Below are positions 34,614 to 58,377 of a stretch of 64,000 bases of DNA, piece by piece; position 1 is the stretch's first letter, and each line of letters opens with the position of its first letter. Made by a program: the position numbers and the translations under genes. Source of the stretch: Marmoricola sp. (GTDB taxonomy: Bacteria; Actinomycetota; Actinomycetes; Propionibacteriales; Nocardioidaceae); NCBI GenBank assembly GCA_025965195.1, contig JAOPXK010000112.1:6-64005 (forward strand). The letters run 5' to 3'. A model generated the notes under the pieces. That model was not told the DNA's origin. It ran no database searches and saw only the letters and a list, made by a program, of their open reading frames with translations.

Positions 34614-35815
34614 CAGGACTCGGCCGGACCAGTGGTCGAGCCGCCTCCGGTGGTCGAGCCTGTCGAGACCACGTCCCCTTCGGACCCGGCGTCGGCTGCC
34701 CTCTTCGCGAGGTTCTCGGTGACTTCCTCGTGCCAGTACTCGTTGGCCTTGGTGGTGTCGACCTCGAACTCGAACCGCGCCACCATCTCCGGGGCGATGT
34801 CCGCCTTGTCGACGTAGAACTGCTCGTACCAGCGGCGCAGCTGGTAGACCGGGCCGTCCTCCTCGCAGAGCAGCGGGTTCTGGACGGGGACCTTGTTCTT
34901 CCAGATGTGCACGTCCTGCAGGAACCCGCCGCCGAACATCTCGGCGTACTTCTTGCTGATGTACTGCGCGGTCTTGTCATCGATGCCCTCGGGCTTCTTG
35001 ACCGTGATGCCGTACTGCAGGGTGAACGAGTTCGGGCCGGTCGGGATGTGGCAGTTGATCAGGATGACCTCGGTCTCGAACCCCTTGTAGTCCACGTCGA
35101 GCCAGTTGATCATGTAGGCCGGTCCGTAGTAGGTCGCCACCGACTTGAGGAACAGGTCGGCGTCGCCGTACCCACCGCTCATGTCGGGGCGGCCCTTGGA
35201 CTCCATGAACTGGGTGGCCACGTGATCTTCGAAGACGTTGCGAAAGCTCGTCGGGAACGAGAAGTGCACGTAGTAGAAGTGCGCCATGTCCACGACGTTG
35301 TCGATCAGCTCGCGGCAGTGGGAGTCGGTGATCGGGACGACCTCCCAGGTCCAGTCGGTGTACTCCGAGGTGCCGATGCCCGGAAGCTCCGGCGGCAGGA
35401 TGTCCAGGTCCGCCTCGGAACCCTCGGTGTCGTGCCAGATCAGCAGCTGCCCGTTGCGGACCGCGGTCGGGTACTTCTGGGTGCGCGCGCGCATCGGGAT
35501 CCGCCGGGCATACGGGATCGCCTTGCACTTGCCGTCGCCGCCCCAGCGCCAGTCGTGGAACGGGCACGCGATCTCGTCACCCTTGACCGAGCCCTGGGTC
35601 AGGTCGCCACCCATGTGCCGGCAGTAGCCGTCGAGGACGTTGAGCTCGCCCGTGGTGTCCTCCCAGACGACCAGCTTGCCGCCGAAGGCCTCGATCGCAT
35701 GCGGTTTGCGATCCCGGAAGGAGTCGGCCAGTCCCAGGCAGTGCCAGCCACGAGCGAACCTGTCCGGCGGGGTGCCTCCGTCGAGGGAGCGGGCTTCGGT
35801 AGTCGCGCTGGTCAT
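34613..35815 (-). CDS. kshA: 3-ketosteroid 9alpha-hydroxylase oxygenase subunit
   Basis: Rieske CRHMGG...CPFHDW; mononuclear Fe ligands DMAHFYYVH and FLQDVHIW; RFARGWHCLG. Confidence 0.93.
   Translation of the reverse strand: MTSATTEARSLDGGTPPDRFARGWHCLGLADSFRDRKPHAIEAFGGKLVVWEDTTGELNVLDGYCRHMGGDLTQGSVKGDEIACPFHDWRWGGDGKCKAIPYARRIPMRARTQKYPTAVRNGQLLIWHDTEGSEADLDILPPELPGIGTSEYTDWTWEVVPITDSHCRELIDNVVDMAHFYYVHFSFPTSFRNVFEDHVATQFMESKGRPDMSGGYGDADLFLKSVATYYGPAYMINWLDVDYKGFETEVILINCHIPTGPNSFTLQYGITVKKPEGIDDKTAQYISKKYAEMFGGGFLQDVHIWKNKVPVQNPLLCEEDGPVYQLRRWYEQFYVDKADIAPEMVARFEFEVDTTKANEYWHEEVTENLAKRAADAGSEGDVVSTGSTTGGGSTTGPAES
34632..34670. repeat. dispersed REP-like repeat copy inside the kshA 3' end
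   Basis: GGTGGTCGAGCCTGTCGAGACC (34649-34670) plus a partial unit GTGGTCGAGCC (34632-34642); 20 of 21 nt identical to 58357-58377. Confidence 0.8.
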
Positions 35816-35852
35816 GGGTCCTCCAGTGGTGCCGACAGTCATTGCCGAAAAC

Positions 35853-35866
35853 AAGAACAGGTTATA
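35853..35866. promoter_or_regulatory. KstR-type operator (kshA / fadE26 divergent region)
   Basis: AAGAACAGGTTATA vs TnnAACnnGTTnnA, one mismatch. Confidence 0.7.
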
Positions 35867-35921
35867 GTTTTACGCGGGAGAAGGCCAGTCTTCTGCTCCG
35901 AGAGTCTATGAGGTCAAGCTG

Positions 35922-37100
35922 ATGAAGATCGCCCTGAGCGCCGAGCACGAGGCCCTGCGCAGCGAGCTCCGCGAGTATTTCGCCGGGATCGCGACGCCCG
36001 AACGTCGTGCCGCGCTCGCCATGTCCACCGGCGAGTTCGGAGACGCCGGCGTCTACAAGGAAGTGATCCGCGAGATCGGCCACGACGGCTGGCTGGGCAT
36101 CGGCTGGCCCAAGGAGTACGGCGGCCAGGACCGCTCGATGATCGAGCAGCTGATCTTCACCGACGAGGCCGCCGTTGCCGGCATCCCGATCCCCTACCTG
36201 ACGCTGAACACGGTCGGACCCACGATCATGCGGTTCGGCACCGACGAGCAGAAGGCGGAGATCCTGCCCAAGATCCTCAAGGGCGAGATGCACTTCTCCA
36301 TCGGCTACTCCGAGCCCGCCTCCGGCACCGACCTCGCCAGCCTGCAGACCCGTGCCCGTCGCGAGGGCGACGAGTGGGTGATCAACGGCCAGAAGATGTG
36401 GACGTCGCTGATCCAGTACGCCGACTACATCTGGCTCGCGTGTCGCACCGATCCGGACCTGCCGCGCCACAAGGGCCTCTCGATGATCCTGGTGCCGGCC
36501 GACGCCAAGGGGTTCTCGTACACCCCGGTGCACACCGTCGCCAGCGTGCACACCAGCGCGACGTACTACGAAGACGTCCGGGTGCCCGTGGGCAACCTGG
36601 TCGGCGAGCTCAACGGCGGCTGGTCGCTGATGACCAACCAGCTCAACCACGAGCGCGTCGCGCTGACCTCGTCGGCACCACTGACCCAGTCGCTCAAGCA
36701 GGTCCGCGAATGGGCACAGCAGACCAAGAACCCCGACGGCTCCCGCGTCATCGACACCGAGTGGGTGCAGGTGCTCCTCGGCCGCGCCCAGGCGCGCATC
36801 CAGATGCTGACGCTGCTCAACTGGAAGCTGGCCTCCGCGACCAAGGACCTCTCCCCCGCGGACGCCTCGGCCACGAAGATCTATGGCTCCGAGCTCGCCA
36901 CCGAGGTGTACCGCTCGCTGATGGAGATCACCGGTCCCGAGGCGTACGTCGCCGACGGCTCACCCGGCGCGATCCTGCACGGCAGGCTCGAACGCTACTT
37001 CCGCTCCGCCCTGGTGATGACCTTCGGCGGCGGCACCAACGAGATTCAGCGCGACATCATCGGGTACGTCGGCCTCGGCCTGCCGGCGGCGAAGCGATGA
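35922..37100 (+). CDS. fadE26: steroid side-chain acyl-CoA dehydrogenase subunit (ChsE4)
   Basis: IGYSEPASGTDLASL, NGQKMWTS and TFGGGTNEIQRDII; N-terminus resembles mycobacterial FadE26 as recalled; paired with a fadE27-like gene. Confidence 0.85.
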   Translation: MKIALSAEHEALRSELREYFAGIATPERRAALAMSTGEFGDAGVYKEVIREIGHDGWLGIGWPKEYGGQDRSMIEQLIFTDEAAVAGIPIPYLTLNTVGPTIMRFGTDEQKAEILPKILKGEMHFSIGYSEPASGTDLASLQTRARREGDEWVINGQKMWTSLIQYADYIWLACRTDPDLPRHKGLSMILVPADAKGFSYTPVHTVASVHTSATYYEDVRVPVGNLVGELNGGWSLMTNQLNHERVALTSSAPLTQSLKQVREWAQQTKNPDGSRVIDTEWVQVLLGRAQARIQMLTLLNWKLASATKDLSPADASATKIYGSELATEVYRSLMEITGPEAYVADGSPGAILHGRLERYFRSALVMTFGGGTNEIQRDIIGYVGLGLPAAKR

Positions 37101-37128
37101 CCTGCGCCACCTCACGAGGAGACAACTG

Positions 37129-38238
37129 ATGGACTTCGACTTCACCCCCGAGCAGGTCGACGCGACCGAGCTCGCAGCGACGATCTTCACCGATGCCTGC
37201 ACCCCCGAGCGCCTGAAGGCCATCGACGGCGAGACCGGACGTTTCGACCGTGAGCTCTGGTCGACCCTCGGCAAGGCCGGCCTCCTCGGGCTGGCCGTGC
37301 CCGAGGCCTACGACGGCGGCGGGCTCGGCCTGCTCGAGCTCTGCAGCGTGCTCGTCGAAGCCGGTCGGGTGGTGGCTCCGGTCCCCCTGGTCGTGCATGC
37401 GCCGACCGCGATGGCGATCGCCGAGTTCGGCACCGACGCACAGAAGTCCGACTGGCTCACCCACGCCGCCACCGGAGAGGTGGTGCTCAGCACCGCGATC
37501 AGTGAGGAGCGCAACGCGCTTCCCGACCGGCCGACGACCCGCGCCGAGCTCGCGGGCGACAGCTGGACGCTGACGGGCACGAAGGTGGCCGTCCCCGCCG
37601 GGACCGTCGCGGATCTCTTCGTCGTGCCCGCGGACACCGCGGACGGCGTCAAGGTGTTCCTTGTCAGGCCTTCCGAGGAAGGTGTCACCGTCTCGGCCCA
37701 GCGGATCAGCGACGGGGACGAGGTGGCGCGCCTCGAGCTCGACGGTGTCGTCGTATCCGCCGACCAGGAGCTCGGCACCGGCCGTGAGGTCGTCGAGTGG
37801 CTGCAGCAGCGCCTGGTCGTGGCGCTGTGCGCCCAGCAGGTGGGCACGCTCGACGGCGCGCTGAAGCTGACCAGCGCCTATGCCCGGACCCGTGAACAGT
37901 TCGGCCGGCCGATCGGCACCTTCCAGGCCGTTTCGCAGCGGCTGGCGGACGGCTACATCGACGTCCTCGGCACGCAGCTCGCGCTGTGGCAGGCCGCCTG
38001 GCGCCTCGACGAGGGCCTGCCTGCGGGGGTCGAGGTCGCCAGTGCCAAGGTCTGGGCGGCCGACGCCGGCCACAAGCTCGCGCACACCACCGTGCACGTC
38101 CACGGGGGCAACGGCATCGACCTCGATGGTGAGGCGCACCGCTACTTCACCGCCGCGAAGCGCAACGAGTTCACCTACGGCGGTGTCACCGAGCACTCGC
38201 TGCGGATCGGCCGGGCCCTCGCCGCCGAACCCGCCTGA
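37129..38238 (+). CDS. fadE27: steroid side-chain acyl-CoA dehydrogenase partner subunit (ChsE5)
   Basis: MDFDFTPEQ, REQFGRPIGTFQAV and HVHGGNGID; short ACAD following fadE26. Confidence 0.82.
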   Translation: MDFDFTPEQVDATELAATIFTDACTPERLKAIDGETGRFDRELWSTLGKAGLLGLAVPEAYDGGGLGLLELCSVLVEAGRVVAPVPLVVHAPTAMAIAEFGTDAQKSDWLTHAATGEVVLSTAISEERNALPDRPTTRAELAGDSWTLTGTKVAVPAGTVADLFVVPADTADGVKVFLVRPSEEGVTVSAQRISDGDEVARLELDGVVVSADQELGTGREVVEWLQQRLVVALCAQQVGTLDGALKLTSAYARTREQFGRPIGTFQAVSQRLADGYIDVLGTQLALWQAAWRLDEGLPAGVEVASAKVWAADAGHKLAHTTVHVHGGNGIDLDGEAHRYFTAAKRNEFTYGGVTEHSLRIGRALAAEPA

Positions 38239-38246
38239 GTTCGGAC

Positions 38247-39788
38247 GTGACGACGCTCCGCGAGACGTTCTCGGGACTGGCGGAGGTCGACTCCCCAGGG
38301 CTGCTCACCGCCTCCGGGAGCTGGTCGTGGCGGGAGTACGTCGAACAGGCGGAGCTGCGGGCCCGCGCGATCGCCGGCATGCTCGACCCGGCACGACCTC
38401 CGCACGTCGGCGTCCTCCTCGACAACACTGCGGAAATGGCCTTCCAGCTCGCGGCAGCGGGCATCGGCGGCCATGTGGTCGTCGGACTGAACACGACCCG
38501 ACGCGGGACGGGGATGGCGAGCGACATCACCAGGTCGGACTGTCAGTTCGTCGTCACCGACGCCGCTCACCGCCCCTTGCTCGAGGCGACCGACGTCCCG
38601 ATCCTCGACGAGACGCAGGTGTGGCAGACACCGAACACAGCCGGTCCGCCGCGCACGGTCGGCCCCGCCACCCTCTTCATGCTGATCTTCACCTCCGGGA
38701 CGAGCGGTGAACCCAAGGCCGTCCGGATGACCCACGAGAAGGTCACGTTCCCCGGCATCATGCTGGCCGACAGGTTCCAGCTGACGGCCGAGGACGTCTG
38801 TTACGTCTCGATGCCGCTGTTCCACTCGAACGCGATCATGGCCGGTTGGAGCGTCGCGATCGCAGCGGGTGCGGCGATCGCGCTCGGCGAGAGGTTCTCC
38901 GCGAGCGGCTTCATCGAGGATGCCCGCAGCTACGGAGCGACGTACGCGAACTATGTCGGCAAGCCTCTTGCGCACATCCTGGCCACACCGCCGAAGCCCG
39001 ACGACGACGACAACCCGTTGCGGGTGGTCTTCGGCAACGAAGCCGGGGAACGCGACATCACCGAGTTCGGCCGGCGTTTCGGCTGCCTGGTCTGGGACGG
39101 CTTCGGCTCGACCGAGAACGCCGTCATCGTCACCCGCACCCCCGACACCCCGACCGGCTCCATCGGGCAGCCGCTGGACGGGGTCGCCGTGCTCGACCCG
39201 GAGACGAGCCGGGAGTGTCCCCGCGCCGTGGTCGACGAGCACGGCAACGTCAGCAACCTCGATGACGCCGTCGGCGAGCTGGTGAACACCTTGGGAGCCG
39301 GTCAGTTCGCGGGCTACTACAACGACGAAGCCGCAACCTCGGCGCGGATGCGCGACGGGATGTACTGGAGCGGCGACCTGGCCTGGCGCGACCAGGCCGG
39401 CTACGTCTACTTCGCGGGACGGACCAGTGACTGGCTCCGGGTGGACGGCGAGAACCTGGCCGCCGCGCCCATCGAGAGGATCCTGCTGCGGCATCCGCTG
39501 GTCAGCGAGGCCGCGGTGTACGCCGTGCCCGACCCGTCCTCCGGCGACCAGCTGGTCGCGGCTCTCGTGCTGCGCGAGGACGTGACGCTCTCGCCTGCGG
39601 AGTTCGAGAGCTTCCTTGCCGGCCAGGAGGACCTCGGCACCAAGGCCTGGCCGCGCCACGTCCTGCTGGCCGTGAGCCTGCCGAGGACCGCGACGAACAA
39701 GGTCCTCAAGCGCGCCCTCCAGCAGCAGGGGCTCGACCAGATGACCTGGATCCGCGAGGAACGCGGCCGGGCCTACTCCGCGCGCTGA
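38247..39788 (+). CDS. fadD17: acyl-CoA synthetase (steroid side chain)
   Basis: FTSGTSGEPK, SMPLFHSNA, FGNEAG, YWSGDLA and LRVDGENL; synteny fadE26-fadE27-fadD17. Confidence 0.82.
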   Translation: MTTLRETFSGLAEVDSPGLLTASGSWSWREYVEQAELRARAIAGMLDPARPPHVGVLLDNTAEMAFQLAAAGIGGHVVVGLNTTRRGTGMASDITRSDCQFVVTDAAHRPLLEATDVPILDETQVWQTPNTAGPPRTVGPATLFMLIFTSGTSGEPKAVRMTHEKVTFPGIMLADRFQLTAEDVCYVSMPLFHSNAIMAGWSVAIAAGAAIALGERFSASGFIEDARSYGATYANYVGKPLAHILATPPKPDDDDNPLRVVFGNEAGERDITEFGRRFGCLVWDGFGSTENAVIVTRTPDTPTGSIGQPLDGVAVLDPETSRECPRAVVDEHGNVSNLDDAVGELVNTLGAGQFAGYYNDEAATSARMRDGMYWSGDLAWRDQAGYVYFAGRTSDWLRVDGENLAAAPIERILLRHPLVSEAAVYAVPDPSSGDQLVAALVLREDVTLSPAEFESFLAGQEDLGTKAWPRHVLLAVSLPRTATNKVLKRALQQQGLDQMTWIREERGRAYSAR

Positions 39789-39803
39789 GTCAGCGCTGAG
39801 TCA
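39782..39803. repeat. 11-bp tandem duplication at the fadD17 stop
   Basis: GCGCTGAGTCA twice, followed by degenerate GGGCTGGCTCA. Confidence 0.6.
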
Positions 39804-39811
39804 GGGCTGGC

Positions 39812-40420
39812 TCATTCGGTTGCCAGCCGGACGCCGAAGCCGATCAGCACGACTGCGGTGATCGCGTCGAGCCGGCGGCGGATGTGTGGTGTGTTCATCC
39901 AGCCCGTCACCCGCGTCGCGAGGCGGAGCAGCAGCACCCAGTAGAGCGCGGTGATCACCACGAAGATCGCGCCGAACAGCAGCGACGTCAGCCCGACCGA
40001 GTGCCCCTTCGGCACGAACCCGGGCAGGAAGGTCACGAAGAAGACGCCGACCTTCGGGTTGAACAGGTTGGTGAGCAGGCCGGCGCGGAAACCGGTGCCG
40101 AGCACGCCGCCACCCTGGCCTCCGGCCTGCTGGATCGCGCCACGCGACCGCCAGGCCTGGACACCGAGATAGACGAGGTAGCAGGCGCCGACGATCCGGA
40201 GGAGGTCGTAGCCGACCTCGCTCGCCCTCAGCATCGCCGCCAGACCCAGAGCCGCAGCACCCACCCAGACCCCGAGTCCGCAGAGGTTGCCGAGCGCGGT
40301 GAGCACTCCTTGACGCCGGCCACCGCGCAGGATGCTCCGGACCACGACGAGCGTGTCAGGGCCCGGCAGCAGCACAATCAGGACGGCCGCGAGGGCGAAG
40401 GTGAGCACGGGGACCAGCAC
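39812..40420 (-). CDS. LysE/RhtB family translocator
   Basis: LLPGPDTLVVVR, GACYLVYLG, GLLTNLFNPKV and LDAITAVVLIGFG motifs. Confidence 0.92.
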   Translation of the reverse strand: MLVPVLTFALAAVLIVLLPGPDTLVVVRSILRGGRRQGVLTALGNLCGLGVWVGAAALGLAAMLRASEVGYDLLRIVGACYLVYLGVQAWRSRGAIQQAGGQGGGVLGTGFRAGLLTNLFNPKVGVFFVTFLPGFVPKGHSVGLTSLLFGAIFVVITALYWVLLLRLATRVTGWMNTPHIRRRLDAITAVVLIGFGVRLATE

Positions 40421-40474
40421 CGCCAAATGGTACGTCGAATCAGGTGCCCGGACTGCTGCACTAGCGTGACCGAC

Positions 40475-41032
40475 ATGCCGCTGTACTCCTTCGAGGGCAC
40501 CAGCCCCACCGTGCACCCGTCCGCCTTCATCGCTGCCAATGCCGTCCTCGTCGGTGACGTCGTCGTCGAGGCGAACGCCTCGGTCTGGTACGGCGCGATC
40601 CTTCGTGGCGACTACGCGCAGATCGCTGTCCGTGAGGGCGCGAACGTCCAGGACGGTTCGGTGCTGCACGCGGCGCCCGACCTGCCGTGCATCGTCGGGC
40701 CGGGGGCGACGATCGCCCACCTCTGCGTCGTACACAGCGCGACGATCGGTGAGGAGGCCCTGATCGGCAACCACGCAACGGTTCTCGACGGCGCGAAGAT
40801 CGGCCGCCGGACCCTCGTTGCCGCTGGCTCGCTCGTGGTGCCGGGGTCCGACTTTCCCGACGAGGTGCTCGTCATCGGCTCACCGGCGAAGGTGAAGGGC
40901 CCGATCGCGGGAACTGCGTCCGAGTTCTGGATCGCCGCCAACCCGCAGGCCTACCGCGACCTCGCGCAGCGCCACCTCAAGGGCGTGGCAGAGGTCAGTT
41001 CATCAGGGCCGCGGCCCGGTTGGTCAGCTTGA
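40475..41032 (+). CDS. gamma-class carbonic anhydrase family (hexapeptide repeat) protein
   Basis: IGDV-type VLVGDV, WYGAILRGD, NVQDGSVLH and IAHLCVVH His ligands; 3' end overlaps the convergent ORF by 38 bp. Confidence 0.9.
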   Translation: MPLYSFEGTSPTVHPSAFIAANAVLVGDVVVEANASVWYGAILRGDYAQIAVREGANVQDGSVLHAAPDLPCIVGPGATIAHLCVVHSATIGEEALIGNHATVLDGAKIGRRTLVAAGSLVVPGSDFPDEVLVIGSPAKVKGPIAGTASEFWIAANPQAYRDLAQRHLKGVAEVSSSGPRPGWSA

Positions 41033-42479
41033 CGTCGTAGAAGCCCGAGTTGACGTCGGAGTACCAGATCGACTTGCGCTTCCGGTCCCACGCCGGCTGC
41101 GACATGGCGTAGCCACCCGGCAACGGGATCGTCAGTCGGGTGCTCGACACCAGCGGCTTGTTGAAGTAGGCCACCTCGCGAGGGTGCTTGACGTCACGGA
41201 TGTCGAAGACCCGCAGACCCGAGAGGATCATCGAGCAGGCGGCGAGGTTCGGGTTGGTGCGCGTCGGCATCGAGCAGTAGTGCGCGGCGTACCCCTGCGC
41301 TGGGAACCAGGCACCGGGGTCGTCCTTCTCGGCTCCACGGCGAGCGTCGGGCTGTTGCACCCGCAGCCGGATGTTGGAGACCACCCGGGGATGCCGGGGA
41401 TCCTGGACGTCGATGATCCGGGCAGCCCCGACGCTTGCCTGGTTGAGGTTGGACAGTCCCTTGAGGGTGAACAGGTCGACGAACTCGTCGACCTCGAACA
41501 CGTAGTGATGGCCGTTGCGGGTGAACGGCTCCGCGACCTGCGGGATCGACACCTCCCGCCAGCTCAGCGAGGACCGCACCGGCACGCTCGGATTGGGTGT
41601 GCGGTCCTGGATCTGACTGACGTCCAGGATCCGGAGCCCACCGTCGGTGATGCCGCCGAGTCCGACGGTGCCGATGTTCGCGACGTACATCGTCCGGCCG
41701 TCGTCGGAGAGCCGGAGCCCGTGGTACTGCACGCCGAACTGGGTGAAGATCGTCCGCGGCTGGCGCGGGTTCGTGACGTCGATCGCGACCAGGCTGGCGG
41801 TCGCGCTCGAGGCGTAGAACGTCTTGCCGTCAGGTGCGAACCCGCTCTCGTGTCCCAGGATGGCGGACAGCGTGCTCGACATCAGTTGAGGGTGCCGGCA
41901 GTCGTTGTGGACGTCGTAGATGTCGAAGAATCCCGGAGCGGTCGCGGCGGTGCCCATGTCCGCCGCCAGCAGGCCGCGGCGGGTGTTGAGCAGCAGCGAC
42001 TCGTGCGGGCTGAGCATGGCGGGCGTGGTCAGGTTGGCCGTCTTGCGCGGATGCCTGGGGTCGTTCATGTCGAGCACCACAACGCCAAGGCCGTCTCCGG
42101 AGATCAGGTTGGCCAGGACGTCCTTCGGCAGGGTCAGGGTCGAGTCGTAGTACGCGCAGGTGTTGCCGTGAACGTCGGTGTAGCGGATCACCTTGAAGCC
42201 ACCTGAGGCACCCTGATGGGAGACCTGGACCGTGTTGCAGCGATAGCCCTTCGCCGCTCGGCCCGACCGGAAGTCCGCCAGCGGCACCCGTCCGTCGATG
42301 CTGGTCTCCGGGTGGGCGCCCGGGCCGCAGTGCGGCTTGGCCAGCGCCTTCGGAAAGGCCGCCTCCGCGCCTTCGGACGAGCCGGGCCAGATCAGCAGTA
42401 CGCCGATGGTGGCGCAGATCGTGACGATCAGGCCGAGGCGGAGCCATTCGGAACGGTGACGTGCTGGCAGGACCGTCAT
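40995..42479 (-). CDS. exported LVIVD-repeat-like beta-propeller protein
   Basis: N-terminal TM/signal; repeats VVVLDMNDPRHP, LVAIDVTNPRQP, LRILDVSQ, ARIIDVQDPRHP and LRVFDIRDVKHP. Confidence 0.72.
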   Translation of the reverse strand: MTVLPARHRSEWLRLGLIVTICATIGVLLIWPGSSEGAEAAFPKALAKPHCGPGAHPETSIDGRVPLADFRSGRAAKGYRCNTVQVSHQGASGGFKVIRYTDVHGNTCAYYDSTLTLPKDVLANLISGDGLGVVVLDMNDPRHPRKTANLTTPAMLSPHESLLLNTRRGLLAADMGTAATAPGFFDIYDVHNDCRHPQLMSSTLSAILGHESGFAPDGKTFYASSATASLVAIDVTNPRQPRTIFTQFGVQYHGLRLSDDGRTMYVANIGTVGLGGITDGGLRILDVSQIQDRTPNPSVPVRSSLSWREVSIPQVAEPFTRNGHHYVFEVDEFVDLFTLKGLSNLNQASVGAARIIDVQDPRHPRVVSNIRLRVQQPDARRGAEKDDPGAWFPAQGYAAHYCSMPTRTNPNLAACSMILSGLRVFDIRDVKHPREVAYFNKPLVSSTRLTIPLPGGYAMSQPAWDRKRKSIWYSDVNSGFYDVKLTNRAAALMN

Positions 42480-42490
42480 CGGCGGACCGG

Positions 42491-45249: not shown

Positions 45250-45260
45250 GCGCCCGAGAC

Positions 45261-45274
45261 TAGAACACGTTCTC
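45261..45274. promoter_or_regulatory. KstR-type operator (fadD19 / echA19)
   Basis: TAGAACACGTTCTC, one mismatch to TnnAACnnGTTnnA. Confidence 0.8.
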
Positions 45275-45296
45275 GTTCTTGGCTAGGCTGAAACGC

Positions 45297-47047: not shown

Positions 47048-47094
47048 GGATCCACTTTCTCATTTGCGGTGATAACGGACCTAGACTTCACGAC

Positions 47095-49668: not shown

Positions 49669-49782
49669 GCACCGCCCGGGCGAAACCTGGGCACCAGGCA
49701 CCGATTCGCTGCAACTCTCGCCTTCCTAGCGTGATGGGTGTGCTCGACCGAGCGCATCCCCTCGCCAGGAAAGGCTGTTCCG

Positions 49783-50034: not shown

Positions 50035-50036
50035 GG

Positions 50037-51209: not shown

Positions 51210-51210
51210 C

Positions 51211-52833
51211 TCAGACCGACCGGTCGTGACCCTGCCAGTAGGTCGCGCGCAGCGCCTTCTTGTCCGGCTTTCCCAAGCCCGTAAGGGGAAGCGCATCAGC
51301 GATGATCACCTGTTTCGGTGACTGCACCGCACCCTTGCGGTCCTTCACCGCAGCCTGGATCTCGGCGGTCATCGTGGCGATGGATGCGTCGTCGCGGGGA
51401 GCGTCGGCACGGAGCACGACGATCGCGGTGACCGCCTCACCCCACTTCTCGTCGGGTACGCCGATCACGCCGACCTGTGCGACCGACGGGTGCTCGGCAA
51501 CGACATCCTCGACCTCGCGCGGGAACACGTTGAAGCCGCCGGTGACGATCATGTCCTTGGTGCGGTCGACGATGAACCAGAAACCGTCCTCGTCCTCACG
51601 AGCGACATCGCCGGTGTGCATCCAACCGTCCCGAAACGTCTCGGCCGTTGCGTCCGGGAGATTCCAGTAGCCACCTGCGAGCAGCGGGCCGGCGACACAG
51701 ATCTCGCCCGGCTCGCCGACTGCGACCGGCTTGCCGTCCTCGCCGAGCAGAGCCGTCCGCAGCAGCGCCGACGGCCGGCCGCACGAGGAGAGCCGGGCCT
51801 GGTCGTGGTCACCCTTCGCCAGGTAGCTGATCACCATCGGCGCCTCGGACTGGCCGTAGTACTGCGCGAAGATCGGACCGAACCGCTCGATCGCCTCGGC
51901 CAGTCGGACCGGGTTGATCGCGGAAGCGCCGTAGTAGACCGTCTCCAGCGAGGACAGGTCACGGGTCTTGGAGTCGGGGTGGTCCATCAATGCGTAGAGC
52001 ATGGACGGCACCAGCATCGTGGCCGTGATCTTCTGCTCCTCGATCGTCCGGAGCACCTCTGCCGGGTCGAACTTCGCGAGCACGAAGAGCGAACCACCCT
52101 TGATCACGGTCGGCACGAAGAACGCCGCGCCGGCGTGCGAGAGCGGCGTGCACATCAGGAAGCGTGGCGACTCCGGCCACTCCCACTCGGCGAGCTGGAC
52201 CTGGGTCATCGTGGACATCGCCTGGGACGTGCCGACGACGCCCTTGGGCTTCCCGGTGGTGCCACCGGTGTAGGTGATCGACACGATGTGGTCGGGCCGC
52301 AGCAGCACTGCCTCGAGCGGCTTCGGCTCGAACGTGGCGGCCGTCGCCGAGAGGTCCTTGCCGATGTGGGCCAGCTCGTCCGGGACCGGCCCGATCGTGA
52401 GCACCTGCTCGAGGGCCGGGACCCTCTCGAGGAGCCCGAGGGCACGCTCGATGAACATCGGCACCGGGTCGATGATCAGCGTCGTGATCCCCGCGTCGTT
52501 GAGCACATAGGCGTGGTCGTCCAGCGAGCCGAGCGGATGCAACGACGTACGCCGGTAGCCCTGGGTCTGACCGGCGCCGAGGATGAACAGGACCTCGGGA
52601 CGGTTCAGCGCGAGCAGCGCGGCGGCAGTCCCCTGGCCGGCACCCAGCGCCTCGAAGGCCTGCACGTACTGGCTGATCCGGGCCTCGGTCTCGCCACCGG
52701 TCAAGGTGGTGTCGCCGAGGAACATCACCGGTTTCTTCCGGTGCCGCTTCAGCGCCGCGACCATCAGGTGGCCGTTGTGCGTCCCTACGCGCAGGGTGTC
52801 GCTGGCGGGCATGGACTGCGCGGGTTCGGTCAT
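51211..52833 (-). CDS. fadD8: fatty-acid/steroid CoA ligase, FadD8-like
   Basis: THNGHLMVAALKRH, YTGGTTGKPKG, YGQSE, HTGDVA and TGGFNVFPREVE; N-terminus matches FadD8 as recalled. Confidence 0.78.
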   Translation of the reverse strand: MTEPAQSMPASDTLRVGTHNGHLMVAALKRHRKKPVMFLGDTTLTGGETEARISQYVQAFEALGAGQGTAAALLALNRPEVLFILGAGQTQGYRRTSLHPLGSLDDHAYVLNDAGITTLIIDPVPMFIERALGLLERVPALEQVLTIGPVPDELAHIGKDLSATAATFEPKPLEAVLLRPDHIVSITYTGGTTGKPKGVVGTSQAMSTMTQVQLAEWEWPESPRFLMCTPLSHAGAAFFVPTVIKGGSLFVLAKFDPAEVLRTIEEQKITATMLVPSMLYALMDHPDSKTRDLSSLETVYYGASAINPVRLAEAIERFGPIFAQYYGQSEAPMVISYLAKGDHDQARLSSCGRPSALLRTALLGEDGKPVAVGEPGEICVAGPLLAGGYWNLPDATAETFRDGWMHTGDVAREDEDGFWFIVDRTKDMIVTGGFNVFPREVEDVVAEHPSVAQVGVIGVPDEKWGEAVTAIVVLRADAPRDDASIATMTAEIQAAVKDRKGAVQSPKQVIIADALPLTGLGKPDKKALRATYWQGHDRSV

Positions 52834-52843
52834 GCAGCGAGAC

Positions 52844-52857
52844 TAGAACGTGTTACA
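52844..52857. promoter_or_regulatory. KstR-type operator upstream of fadD8
   Basis: TAGAACGTGTTACA, perfect TnnAACnnGTTnnA. Confidence 0.85.
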
Positions 52858-52877
52858 GAAACAGGCAATCATCCCCG

Positions 52878-53789
52878 TCAGCGCGTCTCCTGAATCCGGG
52901 TCAGCTGTCGCGCCTGCTCACGGAGGTAGTCGCTGGCCGACTTAGCCTTGATCCCGCGCTCCTGCAGCGGCCCGTCGTCCCAGCGCGCCTCGTGCAGGTC
53001 CTGGAGAAGGCCGGCGCCGAAGACAGAAGCCAGTGCGTCGTTCGGCCTGTTCAGCAGCCGAATTCCGAGCCGGACAAGGGGCCGGGGCATCCGCGAGACC
53101 TTCATCCGGCGGCTGGTGAGCGCCTCCGCGAGAGCGACTGCCTCGTTTCGACTGATCGCCTCGGGGCCGCCGAACTCGATCACCGCGGGCGGATCGGGCT
53201 CCACCGCAACCCTGGCGACGAACGCCGCGACGTCGTCGGTGCTGACCCAGCGGCGGCGGCTGTCTCCCCTGCCGAAGACCGCCACCTCGCCCGCAGCCAT
53301 GTCGAAGCGGCCCAACGGTGCGAGGTGGATCTCCTGGAAGGCGTCCGGGCGCACTACGACCGACCGCATGGAGGACCTGCTCAGCAGGCGCTCGGTCGCC
53401 ACCTTGGCGCGTTCGAGTGGGGTTCCGAGTGCGGCATCCGCGCCGGCGAAGGAGAGGTAGACGAACCGCTCGACCCCTGCGGACTCGGCTTCCTCCACGA
53501 GGGACCGCATCCCGACCTCGTCGGCTTCGCGAATCGATGGCTTGCGTGTTCCGGCGAGCCTGCGGGCGATGACGGTCGCGGTGGCGATGACCGTCTGAGC
53601 TCCCTCGCACGCAGCGGCCAGGCCCAGGGGCTCGGTGAGGTCACCGTGAACCACACTGACGCCCAGCGCCCGAAGTCCGGCGTCCTCGGTGTCCCTGCGG
53701 ACCAGACATCGGACATCGTTTCCCTGCTCACACAGGAGTCGGACCACCCGGCCCCCCAGCTCTCCCGTCCCACCCACAACGAGCAACAT
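52878..53789 (-). CDS. NAD(P)-binding atypical SDR (NmrA-like)
   Basis: VGGTGELG, HGDL, VERFVYLS and WVSTDDVA motifs. Confidence 0.85.
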   Translation of the reverse strand: MLLVVGGTGELGGRVVRLLCEQGNDVRCLVRRDTEDAGLRALGVSVVHGDLTEPLGLAAACEGAQTVIATATVIARRLAGTRKPSIREADEVGMRSLVEEAESAGVERFVYLSFAGADAALGTPLERAKVATERLLSRSSMRSVVVRPDAFQEIHLAPLGRFDMAAGEVAVFGRGDSRRRWVSTDDVAAFVARVAVEPDPPAVIEFGGPEAISRNEAVALAEALTSRRMKVSRMPRPLVRLGIRLLNRPNDALASVFGAGLLQDLHEARWDDGPLQERGIKAKSASDYLREQARQLTRIQETR

Positions 53790-53918
53790 GTCGATCACCA
53801 CCTTCCGCATCGCGGGCAACAGCTGCCCGATGCCTTGCGGACGATGGTCGAACGCGGAGCGTCCCGGCCACCAGGGCGCTGGTTCCCGCCGCCACCGGGA
53901 ACCTTCCGCGCTCCCGGA

Positions 53919-54953
53919 TCAGGCGAGCAGCTCGGCAACCTCGTTGATCTCCTCCGGTGAGCGGCTGCTGAGCAACAACGTCGACACACCGTTGGCCTCC
54001 CACTCCTGGACCCGGTCCCGCACCTTCGCCCTGTCGCCGATGATGTGCAGCTCATCGACGAGCTTGTCGGGGACACGCGCGGTCGCCTCGTCCTTGCGGC
54101 CCGCGAGGTAGAGCTCCTGGACCTCGTTGGCCACGTCGGCGTACCCCATCCGCTCGAAGACCTGCTTGTGGAAGTTCTGGTCCTTTGCGCCCATGCCGCC
54201 CATGTAGAGCGCGACGAACGGCTTCATCCCATTGATCACCGACTCGGCGTCGTCAGTGATCTGGAGGTGGCAGGTCGCCGCGATCTCGAACGTCTCGCGG
54301 GTGTGCCGCGCACCTGGCCGGGCAAACCCTTCGTCGAGCCAGGGCTGGTACATCGAGGCGGCTCCGGGCGAGAAGAAGATCGGCAGCCAGCCGTCCGCGA
54401 TCTCGGCCGTCTGGGCAACGTTCTTGGGACCTTCGGCACCCAGCCAGATCGGGATGTCGGATCGCAGCGGATGCACGATCGACTTGAGCGGCTTGCCGAG
54501 ACCGACACCCCCAGGACCGTTGTAGGGAAGGGGATAGTGCGGTCCGTCGTTGGTGACCGGCGCCTCCCTGGCAAGGACCTGACGGATGATGTCGACGACC
54601 TCGCGGGTGCGCGCAAGCGGCTTGCCGAACGGCTGGCCGTACCAGCCCTCGACCACCTGCGGACCGCTGACGCCCATGCCCAGGATCATCCGGCCGCTGG
54701 AGAGATGGTCGAGTGTCAGGGCGTGCATCGCGATCGAGGTCGGGGAGCGCCCGGACATCTGCACGATCGAGGTACCGAGCTTGATGCGGGTGGTCTCCCG
54801 ACCCCACCAGGCCAGCGGGGTGAAGGCATCGGAGCCCCACGCCTCGGCCGTGAACACCGCGTCGAACCCGGCAGCCTCCGCGGCAGCCACCAGGTCGCTC
54901 GTATTCGTCGGCGGCTGTGCGCCCCAGTAGCCCAACTGCAGTCCGAGCTTCAT
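53919..54953 (-). CDS. LLM-class F420-dependent oxidoreductase (Rv3520c-like)
   Basis: MKLGLQLGYWG, AEAWGSDAFTPL, GVSGPQVVEGWYG and WLGAEGPKNV motifs. Confidence 0.9.
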   Translation of the reverse strand: MKLGLQLGYWGAQPPTNTSDLVAAAEAAGFDAVFTAEAWGSDAFTPLAWWGRETTRIKLGTSIVQMSGRSPTSIAMHALTLDHLSSGRMILGMGVSGPQVVEGWYGQPFGKPLARTREVVDIIRQVLAREAPVTNDGPHYPLPYNGPGGVGLGKPLKSIVHPLRSDIPIWLGAEGPKNVAQTAEIADGWLPIFFSPGAASMYQPWLDEGFARPGARHTRETFEIAATCHLQITDDAESVINGMKPFVALYMGGMGAKDQNFHKQVFERMGYADVANEVQELYLAGRKDEATARVPDKLVDELHIIGDRAKVRDRVQEWEANGVSTLLLSSRSPEEINEVAELLA

Positions 54954-55005
54954 GTCCACACTCCGTTTCGAAGGTTTGGGCCTCTTCGGTCCTTGCGACC
55001 AAGAC

Positions 55006-55019
55006 TAGAACGTGTTTCA
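55006..55019. promoter_or_regulatory. KstR-type operator (LLM gene / OB-fold-ltp4-ltp3)
   Basis: TAGAACGTGTTTCA, perfect TnnAACnnGTTnnA. Confidence 0.85.
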
Positions 55020-55029
55020 CTTCTGAGCC

Positions 55030-56025
55030 ATGACCGGCATCGCATCAGATCCAGCAATTCGCACTCTCCATGCACCCATGAGAGTCGACTTCGACTACAC
55101 CCGGTCACTCGGCCCGGTGCTCTCCCAGTTCATGACGGGTCTCCGTGATCGTCGCATCCTCGGTGGCGTGCTCAGCGACGGACAAGTCGCCGTACCGCCT
55201 CCGGAGTACGACGGCAGCACACACCAGCCGGTCACCGAGCTGGTCCCGGTCGGTGACGAAGGTGTCGTGCAGACCTGGGCCTGGGTCTCGGAGCCGGTCG
55301 ACGACCAGCCGCTCTCGGTGCCGTTCGCCTTTGCGCTGATCCTTCTCGATGGTGCCGACGTGCCGCTGCTGCATGCTGTTGCGGTCGACTCCCCCGCTGC
55401 GATGGAGACCGGACTCCGGGTCAAGGTCCAGTGGGCCGCGGAGACCAGGGGCGCGATCACCGACATCGCCTGCTTCGTGCCGGTCGGTGCATCGGAGGTG
55501 GTCTCGACAAGCTCGAGCACCGAGGGAAGCTCGATCACCGAGGGCGCCGTGACGACCCTGATCACCCCGGTCAACCTCGCCTATGACTACGCGGCCTCCC
55601 CGGAGGAGTCGAAGTTCTTCCGCGGCCTCGCGGAGGGCAAGATCCTCGGCCAGCGCTGCCCGAAGTGCGAGAAGGTCTACGTCCCGCCGCGCGGTGCCTG
55701 TCCGGTCGACGGGGTGCCGACGACCGACGAGATCGAGCTGCCCGACAAGGGCACCCTGACGACGTTCTGCATCGTGAACGTGCCCTTCCTGGGTCAGAAG
55801 ATCGTCCCGCCGTACGTCTCGGCGTACGTCCTGCTCGACGGTGCGGACATCGGCTTCCTGCACCTGATCCTCGGCGTCGATGCCGCGGAGGTGCGGATGG
55901 GCATGCGAGTCAAGGCAGTCTGGAAACCACGAGACGAGTGGGGTACGACCATCGAGAACATCAGCCATTTCGAGCCGACCGGTGAACCGGACGCCGACTA
56001 CGACACCTACAAGCAGCACCTCTGA
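55030..56025 (+). CDS. tandem OB-fold / Zn-ribbon partner of the sterol thiolase-aldolase (Rv3521-like)
   Basis: Two DUF35-like OB units; the second has CPKC...CPVD; the first lacks Cys; a Ser/Thr-rich linker contains a repeat copy. Confidence 0.85.
   Translation: MTGIASDPAIRTLHAPMRVDFDYTRSLGPVLSQFMTGLRDRRILGGVLSDGQVAVPPPEYDGSTHQPVTELVPVGDEGVVQTWAWVSEPVDDQPLSVPFAFALILLDGADVPLLHAVAVDSPAAMETGLRVKVQWAAETRGAITDIACFVPVGASEVVSTSSSTEGSSITEGAVTTLITPVNLAYDYAASPEESKFFRGLAEGKILGQRCPKCEKVYVPPRGACPVDGVPTTDEIELPDKGTLTTFCIVNVPFLGQKIVPPYVSAYVLLDGADIGFLHLILGVDAAEVRMGMRVKAVWKPRDEWGTTIENISHFEPTGEPDADYDTYKQHL
55500..55544. repeat. dispersed REP-like repeat copy inside the OB-fold linker
   Basis: GGTCTCGACAAGCTCGAGCACCGAGGG followed by a second partial unit AAGCTCGATCACCGAGGG; near-identical to the reverse complement of 58351-58377. 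Confidence 0.8.
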
Positions 56026-57074
56026 TGCGGGACGTAGCGGTCGTCGGGTTCGCCCAGCGACAGATGAAGGAGTTCGAGGGCTCGCCCACCTGCGTCGAGC
56101 TGCTCGTGCCGATCTTTGCCGAGCTCTTCGAGCAGACCGGCTGGACCAAGGACGACATCGGCTTCTGGTGCTCCGGCTCGAGCGACTACCTGGCCGGGCG
56201 GTCGTTCTCGTTCGTCACGGCCGTCGACGCGATCGGCGCGCTGCCTCCGGTGATGGAGTCCCACGTCGAGATGGACGCCGCCTGGGCGCTCTACGAGGCG
56301 TGGATCAAGATCCAGACCGGTGAGGTCGACACGGCCCTGGTCTACGGCTTCGGCAAGGCCTCAGCGGGAGTCCTCCGCCGGACGCTGGCGCTGCAGCTCG
56401 ACCCCTACACGATGACCCCACTCTGGCCCGACACCGTGTCGATCGCCGGCATGCAGGCCCGACTCGGGATCGAACACGGTCGCTGGGACGCGAGGGCGAT
56501 GGCAGCAGTGGTCGCACACTCGCGGACCAGCTCGCTCGACAACGAGTACGCCGTGCTGAAGGGCGCGATGTCGGTTGACGACGTACTCGCCGAGGAGCTG
56601 TACGCCGACCCGCTGCGACGCTCCGACTGCGCACCGGTCAACGACGGCGCCGCCGCGATCGTGCTCGCCGCCTCCGAACGGGCCGGCGAGGCGTCCACGA
56701 GGCCGGCCTGGATCACCGGGATCGAGCACCGGGTGGACCCGCTCCACCTGGGCGCCCGCGACCTGACCCGCTCCCCGAGTGCCGCTGCAGCGGGCAAGGC
56801 GGCCGGCAGCGCCGGCGTCGACCTCGCCGAGCTGCACGCTCCGTTCTCGCACCAGGAGCTGATCCTCCGCGAGGAGCTCGGCCTGTCCGAGAACACCAGG
56901 ATCAACCCGTCGGGTGGCGCCCTGGGCGCCAACCCGATGTTCTCCGCTGGTCTGATCCGGATCGGCGAGGCAGCCAAGCGGATCTGGGCCGGCGAGTCCG
57001 ACAAGGCGCTCGGCCATGCCACCTCCGGGCCGGCACTGCAACAGAATCTCGTCTGTGTGATGGAGGGCCGCTGA
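56025..57074 (+). CDS. ltp4: thiolase-like lipid-transfer protein Ltp4
   Basis: WCSGSSDYLAGRSFSF, SHVEMDAAWALYEAW and INPSGGAL; synteny. Confidence 0.85.
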   Translation: MRDVAVVGFAQRQMKEFEGSPTCVELLVPIFAELFEQTGWTKDDIGFWCSGSSDYLAGRSFSFVTAVDAIGALPPVMESHVEMDAAWALYEAWIKIQTGEVDTALVYGFGKASAGVLRRTLALQLDPYTMTPLWPDTVSIAGMQARLGIEHGRWDARAMAAVVAHSRTSSLDNEYAVLKGAMSVDDVLAEELYADPLRRSDCAPVNDGAAAIVLAASERAGEASTRPAWITGIEHRVDPLHLGARDLTRSPSAAAAGKAAGSAGVDLAELHAPFSHQELILREELGLSENTRINPSGGALGANPMFSAGLIRIGEAAKRIWAGESDKALGHATSGPALQQNLVCVMEGR

Positions 57075-57075
57075 G

Positions 57076-58266
57076 ATGGCTGGTATCGACGGGCTCAACC
57101 ACCGCAAGACGCTGGCCGCCGTGATCGGCGTCGGCCAGACCCATCACCGTGCGAAGCGCGAGGACGTGTCGATCGCCGGACTCTGCCGCGAAGCCATCGA
57201 CCGCGCTCTCGAGGATGCCGGGCTGACCTTCGACGACATCGACGCGGTGGTCATCGGCAAGGCACCAGACCTGTTCGAGGGCGTGATGATGCCGGAGCTC
57301 TACCTCGCCGAGGCACTCGGCGCGGTGGGCAAGCCGTTGCTGCGCGTGCACACGGCCGGCTCCGTGGGTGGTACGACGGCCATCGTCGCGGCCTCCCTGG
57401 TCCAGGCCGGTGTGCACGACCGCGTGCTCACCGTCGCCTTCGAGAAGCAGTCCGAGTCCAACGCGATGTGGGCGCTCTCGGTGCCGGTGCCGTTCATCAT
57501 GCCAGTGCACGCCGGCGCGGGCGGCTACTTCGCCCCGCACGTCCGGTCCTACATCCGGCGTTCGGGCGCACCCGGTCACATCGGCGCGATGGTCGCTGCA
57601 AAGGACCGCCAGAACGCGCTGAAGAACCCCTACGCGCACCTGCACAACGAGGGCACGACCGTCGAGACCGTCCTCGCGTCCCAGATGCTCTGGGACCCGA
57701 TCCGGTACGACGAGACCTGCCCGTCGTCGGACGGCGCCTGCGCAATGGTCATCGCCAGCGAAGCCGTGGTCGACGCGTCGGACGTCAAGAACCCGGCCTG
57801 GATCCACGGGACCCAGATGCGTTCGGAGCCGACCACGGCTGCCGAACGCGACCAGGTGAACCCGCACGCCGGCCGGGCAGCCGCTGCCGCGCTCTGGAAG
57901 CAGGCCGGCATCACGAACCCCCTCGAGGAGATCGACTGCGCGGAGGTCTACGTGCCGTTCTCGTGGTTCGAGCCGATGTGGATGGAGAACCTCGGCTTCG
58001 CCGCCGAGGGCGAGGGCTGGAAGCTCACCGAGTCGGGAGCCACCGCGATCGGTGGCCAGCTCCCGGTGAACATGAGCGGCGGCGTGCTGTCCTCCAACCC
58101 GATCGGAGCCTCTGGCATGCTCCGCTTCGCCGAGGCCGCGCTGCAGGTGATGGGTGAGGCCGGCGAGCACCAGGTCGACGGCGCGAGCCGCGCACTCGGA
58201 CACGCCTACGGCGGCGGTTCCCAGTTCTTCGCAATGTGGGTTGTCGGCGCGCAGAAGCCTGCCTGA
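57076..58266 (+). CDS. ltp3: thiolase-like protein Ltp3
   Basis: GKAPDLFEGVMMPE, EKQSESNAMWAL, DETCPSSDGAC and GHAYGGGSQFF. Confidence 0.9.
   Translation: MAGIDGLNHRKTLAAVIGVGQTHHRAKREDVSIAGLCREAIDRALEDAGLTFDDIDAVVIGKAPDLFEGVMMPELYLAEALGAVGKPLLRVHTAGSVGGTTAIVAASLVQAGVHDRVLTVAFEKQSESNAMWALSVPVPFIMPVHAGAGGYFAPHVRSYIRRSGAPGHIGAMVAAKDRQNALKNPYAHLHNEGTTVETVLASQMLWDPIRYDETCPSSDGACAMVIASEAVVDASDVKNPAWIHGTQMRSEPTTAAERDQVNPHAGRAAAAALWKQAGITNPLEEIDCAEVYVPFSWFEPMWMENLGFAAEGEGWKLTESGATAIGGQLPVNMSGGVLSSNPIGASGMLRFAEAALQVMGEAGEHQVDGASRALGHAYGGGSQFFAMWVVGAQKPA
57081..57104. repeat. dispersed REP-like repeat copy inside the ltp3 5' end
   Basis: TGGTATCGACGGGCTCAACCACCG, 21 of 24 nt identical to the kshA copy read on the minus strand (TGGTCTCGACAGGCTCGACCACCG). 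Confidence 0.65.
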
Positions 58267-58310
58267 GTTCTGCACCGAGGGTGGCCGACAAACACAGCTA
58301 GCGGACACGA

Positions 58311-58347
58311 CAGAAGGCCCCGATCACGAGGTGATCGGGGCCTTCTG
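58311..58347. terminator. bidirectional terminator hairpin between ltp3 and cyp125
   Basis: CAGAAGGCCCCGATCAC-GAG-GTGATCGGGGCCTTCTG, a perfect 17-bp stem between convergent genes. Confidence 0.85.
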
Positions 58348-58350
58348 GCT

Positions 58351-58377
58351 TGCCTCGGTGGTCGAGCTTGTCGAGAC
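58351..58377. repeat. intergenic copy of the dispersed REP-like repeat
   Basis: TGCCTCGGTGGTCGAGCTTGTCGAGAC abutting the cyp125 stop codon. Confidence 0.8.

Follow-up and report, generated by a model that had tools for sequence, protein, structure and literature searches.

The stretch of DNA analysed here, a window of 64,000 nucleotides from Marmoricola sp. (contig JAOPXK010000112.1 of assembly GCA_025965195.1), carries four copies of a repeat of about 24 nt, three of which lie within genes of a sterol cluster and are translated as part of the encoded proteins. The same unit is dispersed through the genome, with the majority of its copies inside genes, and the comparisons described below suggest that the family is probably a mini-element that is inserted, filtered by selection and translated.

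Four copies in a sterol gene cluster

The first copy lies at the 3′ end of kshA (34613–35842, minus strand), which encodes the oxygenase of a 3-ketosteroid 9-alpha-hydroxylase; solved KshA structures match the product over residues 14–383 (E = 7e-157, to 4qdc). The repeat occupies positions 34630–34670 on the minus strand, where a 23-mer that matches the R-degenerate consensus with 0 mismatches (34648–34670) precedes a spacer of 6 nt and another 12-nt core. Translation of this copy gives VVSTGSTTGGGSTTG, within a 26-residue tail past the solved KshA fold, and the C-terminus of the protein reads GDVVSTGSTTGGGSTTGPAES up to the stop codon. The second copy (55500–55540, plus strand) has the same make-up of 23-mer (55500–55522, one mismatch), spacer and second core, here a core of the GATC type, and is found in the interdomain linker of an Rv3521-like protein with OB-fold and zinc-ribbon domains (55078–56025, plus strand; PF12172 and PF01796, ChsH2-type). 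Here the copy is translated as VVSTSSSTEGSSIT, in a linker that reads EVVSTSSSTEGSSITEG.

The third copy is a decayed single unit (57082–57105, plus strand; three mismatches to the 23-mer over 57082–57104) that forms codons 3–10 (GIDGLNHR) of an ltp3-like gene for a thiolase-domain protein (57076–58266, plus strand; NF006180), and constitutes an exact insertion of eight codons relative to orthologues. The N-terminus of this Ltp3 is MAGIDGLNHRK and the match to the family profile begins at residue 11; both Ltp3 and Ltp4 match thiolase-domain and lipid-transfer models. The fourth copy is an extragenic single unit (58356–58378, minus strand; one mismatch) that abuts a cytochrome P450 gene (58377–59612, minus strand), whose TAG stop codon overlaps the 5′ end of the repeat, and it is missing at 20 orthologous loci. 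This copy adjoins a GC-rich, terminator-like hairpin (58313–58345), read from the sequence, which is situated between the convergent ltp3 and P450 genes and falls outside the repeat family.

All four copies had been noticed in a first-pass annotation of the window, at coordinates that were off by 1–2 nt. Its translations of three copies and the second partial unit it described behind two of them are confirmed by reading the host genes, and its naming of these genes as those for KshA, the OB-fold protein and Ltp3 agrees with the structure and profile matches. No match to the 23-mer was found in 100 dinucleotide-preserving shuffles of the window.

Abundance, anatomy and distribution of the repeat

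The metagenome-assembled genome that contains the window (G000; 3.97 Mb, 67% G+C, 200 contigs) has 54 exact copies of the 23-mer, plus 38 with one, 32 with two and 33 with three mismatches (156 elements were analysed), while the reversed sequence, used as a control, has 0 copies. The 23-mer is the most abundant short repeat of this genome, and a 19-nt core pattern derived from it occurs 98 times versus 0 for the control, so the enrichment across the genome that the first-pass annotation had predicted for its motif proved to be very large. Other dispersed families, in which an 18-mer recurs 13–23 times, are also present in G000 (words that start with GGATAGTCCGCCACG, AGTTTTCACAGGGTATG and GGCCAGAACGTCTCGG are examples); these have less G+C than the genome and are probably pieces of larger elements.

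The unit of ~24 nt comprises a 6-bp stem, GTGGTC/GACCAC (GTGRTY/RAYCAC), an 11-nt loop, TCGACA(A/G)GCTC, and a CG(G) tail. Most copies of the 23-mer have GT in front and a G behind, and an element starts with (G)TGGTC and ends with CACCG(G). Pairing is retained among the stem variants of G000, where GGTC/GACC is found 92 times, GATC/GATC 24 times and GGTT/AACC five times; the last of these is the dominant variant in two other genomes of the genus (G011 and G001), and GATT/AATC is present in Specibacter. The stem is therefore maintained by compensatory change across four complementary variants, all with the same 11-nt loop, and the unit is an imperfect palindrome within the 20–40 nt typical of repetitive extragenic palindromic sequences (REPs). 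A search of Rfam 15 gave no match at the gathering score in the window, and chance-level matches only (E ≤ 1) at four repeat-rich loci.

A second feature of the family is reiteration of its 3′ half, since 89 of the 156 elements bear one to three more copies of this 12-nt segment (GCTCRAYCACCG; GCTCGACCACCG) after a short spacer of 6–9 nt; full elements span 23–77 nt. At the 26 loci where a perfect 23-mer is joined to a perfect second core, 25 different spacers were found, and the stem variant of the second core is that of the first in 26 of 26 cases. The combination of 35 unsubstituted flanking bases with a spacer that is unique to the locus shows that the spacer does not derive from a master copy by point-mutational divergence. 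It must instead have been made together with the copy or with its second core, and this core must have been templated by the same element. Within the array of a single locus, spacers are identical (for example, three on contig C199 and two on contig C73), which points to later growth of such arrays by slippage in 18-nt steps. Flap duplication, by which spacers would be copied from the flank downstream, was rejected as a general rule (identity of 0.44 versus a null of 0.36, with the excess coming from a few arrays), and comparison of spacers with the upstream flank gave no signal. Tandem arrays of the full unit are found in an uncultured actinobacterium (six copies with a 30-nt period; L080:7779–7951) and in Cryobacterium fucosi (40-nt period; L013:3271–3400).

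The distribution of the family is patchy. By the 19-nt core pattern, 12 of 61 genomes of the genus have 18–117 copies, 21 have 1–8 and 28, complete genomes among them, have none. The nearest relatives of G000 (G045, G032 and G040; 80–81% identity in one protein, the second of two carboxylase alpha subunits considered below) have 2–4 copies versus its 98, and far more distant species have ~100. Among 400 other genomes sampled evenly across the phylum, five had any copy, with at most eight in one genome. A scan of named genomes found the family, sometimes in tandem arrays, in Nocardioides, Marmoricola, Cryobacterium, Leifsonia, Arthrobacter, Pseudarthrobacter, Promicromonospora and others. This patchiness and the differences in dominant stem variant between genomes are the usual signature of mobile-element bursts, to which they point indirectly. 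A collection of plasmids had one match, in an Arthrobacter megaplasmid, and a collection of phages had none, so there is no sign of a phage or plasmid vehicle. Exact matches to the degenerate 23-mer were also seen in metagenome-assembled genomes of Treponema, Fibrobacteria and Bacteroidales (L003, L008, L009, L011, L017, L019, L034 and others), and at L009 a second hairpin with the same loop and different arms lies 20 nt away; the loop may define a wider superfamily that crosses phyla.

Information on age comes from a metagenome contig that is 97% identical in protein and whose OB-fold gene contains this insert at the identical position. The two inserts differ at 9 of 42 nt, compared to ~4 of 130 in the flanks, indicating that this copy is older than the split of the strains and drifts faster than its gene. 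On the other hand, the presence in G000 of 54 copies identical over 23 nt argues for recent production or homogenisation.

Copies within genes and at orthologous sites

Gene calls for G000 came from a home-made, three-periodic Markov model and cover 80% of the genome (3055 genes), which makes the in-gene counts lower bounds. Among the 156 elements, 88 lie wholly inside genes, 13 cross gene ends and 55 are between genes; when only copies with at most one mismatch are considered (n = 92), the corresponding numbers are 59, 3 and 30, which places the in-gene share at 56–64%. The proposal that three copies in the window add peptides to proteins is supported and applies on a much larger scale, since no fewer than 88 copies of this genome are in genes. 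When copies 150 nt or more from gene ends are considered (n = 49), both 150-nt flanks are best-coding in the same frame and on the same strand for 45 of them. A predicted gene end is 30 nt away or less for 30 of the 88 in-gene copies, and more copies fall in the first decile of gene length than in any other.

The reading of these copies is strongly filtered. In the sense direction VSTSSTT is found 54 times, GLDKLDHR 15 times and SRQARPP once, and in the antisense direction VVELVET is found 17 times, RWSSLSR once and GGRACRD 0 times. Spacers of in-gene copies are multiples of three in 62 of 64 cases, versus 30 of 47 elsewhere, where many are 7 or 8 nt. In addition, intergenic copies have no orientation bias with respect to neighbouring genes (17 anti/anti versus 15 co/co). 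Together, the frame, spacer and orientation data suggest that the process of insertion is blind to genes, and that selection removes copies which break the frame or encode peptides rich in Arg, Cys or Trp. Orientation relative to local GC skew was even (36 to 36), although this proxy is uninformative in a fragmented genome, where genes themselves split 751 to 784.

Alignment with homologues indicates that the copies were added to pre-existing sequence. For example, 100 Ltp3 orthologues from the genus and from metagenomes begin with M-(A/G/S)-K-x-x-AAV, and the window protein has eight extra residues between MA and KTLAAV. The same junction is occupied by independent copies in other lineages, in one case in frame (GGFDKLKHQ) and in another immediately before the start codon. 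The body of KshA is conserved up to ..ENLAKKAAEDA and followed by variable tails, which in genomes without the repeat are short and unrelated; several species have the antisense reading in this tail (SVEPVETP..) and one has both arms (VVEPVETHDVVSTGSTTG). At the P450 locus, the proteins of the 20 orthologues end at the same residue and no copy follows. Thus genomes without the family lack the peptides, or the extragenic copy, at the sites where this could be compared, and the view of the first-pass annotation that these are additions survives comparison with orthologues.

The interdomain linker of the OB-fold protein is hypervariable, and more than 12 of 120 homologues contain peptides of the VSTSSTT or VEPVET type. 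In other Nocardioidaceae, homologues of the product of 55078–56025 (P0008, P0009, P0016, P0024, P0028 and others) have linkers with peptides from no fewer than three further repeat families, namely GFETVAGAPSSTT (antisense ERGTSVSKP), STNVGSGRPEPGSARHNPTNVGSG and RARPRPRDEAATEQSRPG. This linker is a general landing site for GC-rich repeats.

Elsewhere in the genome, copies are found within the Pfam domains of at least 15 housekeeping proteins, including CobN, RecC, an SNF2 helicase, methylmalonyl-CoA mutase, penicillin amidase, glutamine amidotransferase, NAD synthase, a metallo-beta-lactamase-fold protein, FemAB and others; DNA repair is represented by RecC, the SNF2 helicase and an ImpB-type polymerase. 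The copy in CFA synthase corresponds to an 11-residue gap in the best solved homologue (5z9o), between the DYRE strand and the next conserved strand, and that in a methylcrotonyl/acyl-CoA carboxylase alpha subunit gives an excess of six residues relative to 3u9s in a hairpin of the ATP-grasp domain. A second carboxylase alpha subunit has 7–8 extra residues compared to its nearest orthologues, and the same loop contains the antisense reading in genome G008 and an expanded antisense array in G004. Some proteins contain two copies: the recC gene (C193:81459–84839) has one antisense copy inside the Exonuc_V_gamma domain and a sense copy further on, and a gene for an NHL-repeat/thioredoxin-like protein (C88:59559–61424) has two sense copies 37 nt apart.

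Probable insertion of a mini-element and its alternatives

The 24-nt family is probably a non-autonomous mini-element, resembling REPs and Rickettsia palindromic elements (RPEs), that multiplies by insertion, since orthologous sites are empty, copy number is patchy between species and the dominant stem variant differs from genome to genome. In the sequence of events that we propose, an insertion would often add one or more further 3′ halves behind a 6–9-nt spacer that is new at every locus, and arrays would then lengthen by local slippage in 18-nt steps. Insertion seems nearly blind to coding status, with selection sorting the copies afterwards, so that survivors are located between genes, flush with start or stop codons, or in genes where the frame is kept and the peptide is harmless. 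Such peptides include VSTSSTT(G), GLDKLDHR and, from the other strand, VVELVET, at sites in loops, linkers and tails; copies within genes would be translated and would thereafter drift faster than their flanks. We infer that the conserved loop and covarying stem allow an enzyme acting in trans to recognise the hairpin, which is probably single-stranded DNA at that point, and that this enzyme may cut in or near the loop, because the reiterated 12-nt piece starts inside the loop. A hairpin-specific nuclease coupled to a templated junction process is thus the partly inferred mechanism.

Several observations weigh against this reading. The hairpin is thermodynamically weak, with fold z-scores of −0.9 to +0.7 for single-strand folding of consensus units, and there are few stem subfamilies, which leaves about three independent double changes as the basis of the covariation. 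No transposition event, empty and filled site within a species, or target-site duplication was seen among the genomes compared, and in a metagenome scan for empty sites the nearest genomes were ~78% identical in protein, apart from the 97% contig, where the site is already filled. At several sites (KshA, the OB-fold protein and the carboxylase) copies occur in opposite orientations, or as inverted pairs, in different species, and this could mean old insertions plus conversion as opposed to repeated new insertions. Finally, genes were called with a home-made model covering 80% of the genome, and copies near predicted starts may be in 5′ leaders; this escape is closed for ltp3, which has no alternative start codon between its ATG and residue 11, where the family profile begins.

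It is conceivable, though unlikely, that the copies are scars of DNA repair, formed when end-joining or template-switching polymerases prime by microhomology on an existing copy, with no dedicated enzyme; cycles of annealing, extension and dissociation would then yield the 23-mer, a few untemplated bases and the recopied 3′ half. This explanation accounts for spacers that are unique to a locus between perfect templated segments and for the finding that the second core is always of the first core's variant. It would also fit the net gains that are smaller than the element at some sites (~4 residues in the OB-fold linker, and 7–8 in the carboxylase for an element of 14 residues), the reuse of sites in either orientation and the absence of a recognisable transposase. 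However, it leaves unexplained why a single 23-mer, whose stem covaries and whose loop is invariant, would serve as template in organisms as distant as Nocardioides, Cryobacterium and Arthrobacter, and why close relatives with the same repair genes are free of copies, and the 5′ end of the element is sharply defined.

We consider it slightly less probable again that the insertions are old and immobile, inherited by descent and kept alike by gene conversion, with patchy counts reflecting differential loss. The three hotspots that are filled in many species (the KshA tail, the OB-fold linker and the carboxylase loop), the inverted pairs at these hotspots, of which either arm could be lost, and the signs of decay in the insert common to the 97% relative and in the ltp3 copy, with its three mismatches, would all be expected from this scenario. 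Yet 54 copies are identical over 23 nt when a shared copy is ~20% diverged between near relatives, the closest relatives of G000 have 2–4 copies versus 98, and the dominant stem variant differs between genomes.

It appears improbable that the repeat is a signal under selection (for instance, a site for protein binding, an uptake-type sequence or an RNA element) which point mutation builds up in place. Uptake signal sequences are known in coding regions, where they have a frame preference, and the repeat shares this behaviour, as well as having a strongly conserved loop and a frequent position at gene ends. In contrast to uptake signals, which are built by substitution and reach hundreds to thousands of copies in every member of a group, however, homologue alignments show residues that were added, which lengthen the protein, and 28 of the 61 congeners lack any copy. 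Moreover, the copies evolve faster than their flanks, have no orientation bias between genes and no Rfam match, and number only ~100–150 per genome, with none in most congeners. The proposal that selection for Ser/Thr-rich linker peptides yields similar DNA by convergence draws on the resemblance of the commonest reading, VSTSSTTG, to a flexible linker, but is effectively refuted by the occurrence of the same DNA in three frames, on both strands and at 55 non-coding places, with nucleotide-level identity that extends to synonymous positions.

Known repeat systems and a candidate nuclease

Among known systems, the behaviour of the mini-element is closest to that of RPEs and of the intragenic REPs surveyed by Di Nocera et al. 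(2013; PMC3733652), and its architecture is closest to that of REPs and REPINs. REPs have been found inside open reading frames of several proteobacteria, often in DNA repair genes, where they encode 20–30 residues; in that survey intragenic REPs are exceptional, and Actinobacteria do not appear in its text (Di Nocera et al., 2013). The presence of copies in RecC, the SNF2 helicase and the ImpB-type polymerase recalls those intragenic REPs, but for the 24-nt family intragenic copies are the majority.

RPEs, reportedly described by Ogata and colleagues in 2000 and also discussed by Di Nocera et al. (2013), are roughly 100–150 nt in length and confined to an obligate intracellular genus with relaxed selection; they are not known to have a cognate transposase. 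Like RPEs, the mini-element is a dispersed palindromic family of which a large share lies in frame in unrelated housekeeping genes, adding tolerated peptides that are absent from orthologues. It differs in its 24-nt unit (elements of 23–77 nt), in its sequence, which appears unrelated to that of RPEs, in its free-living soil hosts, and in having a reiterated 3′ half, locus-specific spacers and a strong filter that admits three of six frames.

With REP/REPIN systems, which have cognate REP-associated tyrosine transposases (RAYTs), it shares a short hairpin with a covarying stem, an organisation in singletons, inverted doublets and arrays that are often flush with gene ends, a patchy occurrence between species and a multi-copy nuclease gene framed by inverted copies. 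Unlike these systems, it has no GTAG or CGTC tag, 56–64% of its copies are in genes (REPs are predominantly extragenic, with a small minority in genes), and the framed gene encodes a DUF222-HNH nuclease, which is unrelated to HUH/Y1 enzymes. MITEs (miniature inverted-repeat transposable elements) are likewise non-autonomous, short, dispersed and sometimes in frame in genes, but the repeat has a 6-bp terminal inverted repeat and is far under their usual 50–500 nt; flank profiles revealed no target-site duplication, none of the insertion sequences with known transposases proved to be related, and inverted copies frame DUF222-HNH genes, although these are not known transposases. No description of the motif or its encoded peptides was found in the searchable literature, which is not proof of absence.

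The first-pass annotation had also proposed a mobile mini-repeat that adds peptides and is propagated by a nuclease or transposase encoded elsewhere; the first part of this proposal is upheld and the second is unproven, with one class of enzyme excluded and another now a candidate. The RAYT/IS200 Y1 transposase domain (PF01797) has no match in any of the 61 genus genomes, G000 included, when positive controls match in 6 of 14 reference genomes, which rules out a RAYT as the mobiliser. A multi-copy gene that ends several G000 contigs encodes a DUF222-HNH nuclease of the REP13E12 type (PF02720 above the cut-off, and a terminal HNH motif). At all four visible 5′ ends of this gene (contigs C51, C88, C21 and C70) there is an antisense copy of the repeat 95–135 nt upstream of the ATG, with its core array facing outward. 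The genes on C88, C21 and C70 are nearly identical, and similarity between these copies starts at the upstream motif, outside of which there are core arrays with copy-specific spacers and then unique DNA. Three of five visible 3′ ends have a sense copy two bases after the stop codon, with cores outward, and on C46 a degenerate HNH remnant is enclosed by an inverted motif pair. The DUF222-HNH gene is therefore framed in the manner of a RAYT gene in a REPtron, and its ends share the junction of head, new spacer and core that is found in solo copies. The upstream antisense arrangement is also present at three of six loci in G008, at four of seven in G033 and at three of the four loci from other genera where the motif and a DUF222-HNH gene co-occur.

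Other data run counter to a link with this nuclease, because DUF222 genes are found in 60 of the 61 genomes in numbers unrelated to repeat load, and a flanking copy is present at 0 of 20 sampled DUF222 loci of the repeat-rich genomes G004, G067 and G068 (two of the G067 loci bear a copy inside the gene). In addition, only four of 119 motif loci elsewhere are near a DUF222-HNH gene, as is expected for solo copies. On balance, the DUF222-HNH enzyme is the best candidate for the driver, albeit a tentative one. A somewhat more doubtful possibility is that DUF222-HNH nucleases, of the REP13E12 family, have the mini-hairpin as their cognate DNA site, in a partnership like that of REPs and RAYTs involving an unrelated enzyme, where a nick in the loop is followed by resynthesis from a template, with a random spacer and a second copy of the 3′ half as its products. 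The framed gene resembles REP13E12 of mycobacteria in matching PF02720, in being multi-copy and in breaking the assembly, and the searchable papers on REP13E12 describe neither a short satellite repeat nor a mobility mechanism; the candidate link between DUF222-HNH genes and a mini-repeat is new.

What sets the family apart from known systems is the combination of a 24-nt unit, a majority of copies within genes of a free-living host, a reiterated 3′ half with spacers made de novo, the lack of a Y1 transposase and a framed HNH gene. In-frame colonisation of genes by selfish repeats has so far been treated as a Rickettsia curiosity and ascribed to weak selection in an intracellular parasite, yet a smaller element does likewise, on a larger scale, in free-living soil actinobacteria, where it has reached the catalytic domains of biotin carboxylases, CobN, RecC, methylmalonyl-CoA mutase and CFA synthase. 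The copies provide a natural map of insertion-tolerant loops in ~90 proteins per genome and are a source of new linker and tail sequence. They also carry a warning for annotation and alignment, as repeat-derived peptides (VSTSSTTG and VVELVET, for instance) lack homology from one protein to another. The spacers, specific to each locus and placed between perfect repeats, constitute a concrete mechanistic clue that is testable at the bench. If the DUF222-HNH link is true, it would provide a function for a large family of unexplained actinobacterial REP13E12/DUF222 genes, and would reveal a process that steadily writes modules of 8–20 residues into the loops of housekeeping proteins of free-living bacteria.

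Additional features were seen near nuclease genes. The window itself contains one nuclease-like gene flanked by 90-nt inverted repeats that are 84% complementary (60950–62202) and have no sequence in common with the 24-nt family. Upstream of the DUF222-HNH gene on C51 (positions 1240–1700; L242), the motif is inside a tandemly duplicated module of ~165 nt that has a GGGAGCG...CGCTCCC hairpin and no Rfam match. In G008 (L152, L157 and L161, upstream of DUF222-HNH genes) a longer relative of the motif, a form absent from G000, stands beside the short form, with which it shares its outer arms (GGTTTCGAG...CTCAACCACC), and has an inner stem that is extended and GC-rich. On C88, C21 and C70 a conserved near-palindrome, TCGAATAC ACG TTTGAATA, separates the motif from the start codon of the DUF222-HNH gene, to which it is upstream by ~30–60 nt; we take it to resemble the actinobacterial LexA box, which would presumably fit damage-induced expression of the nuclease.

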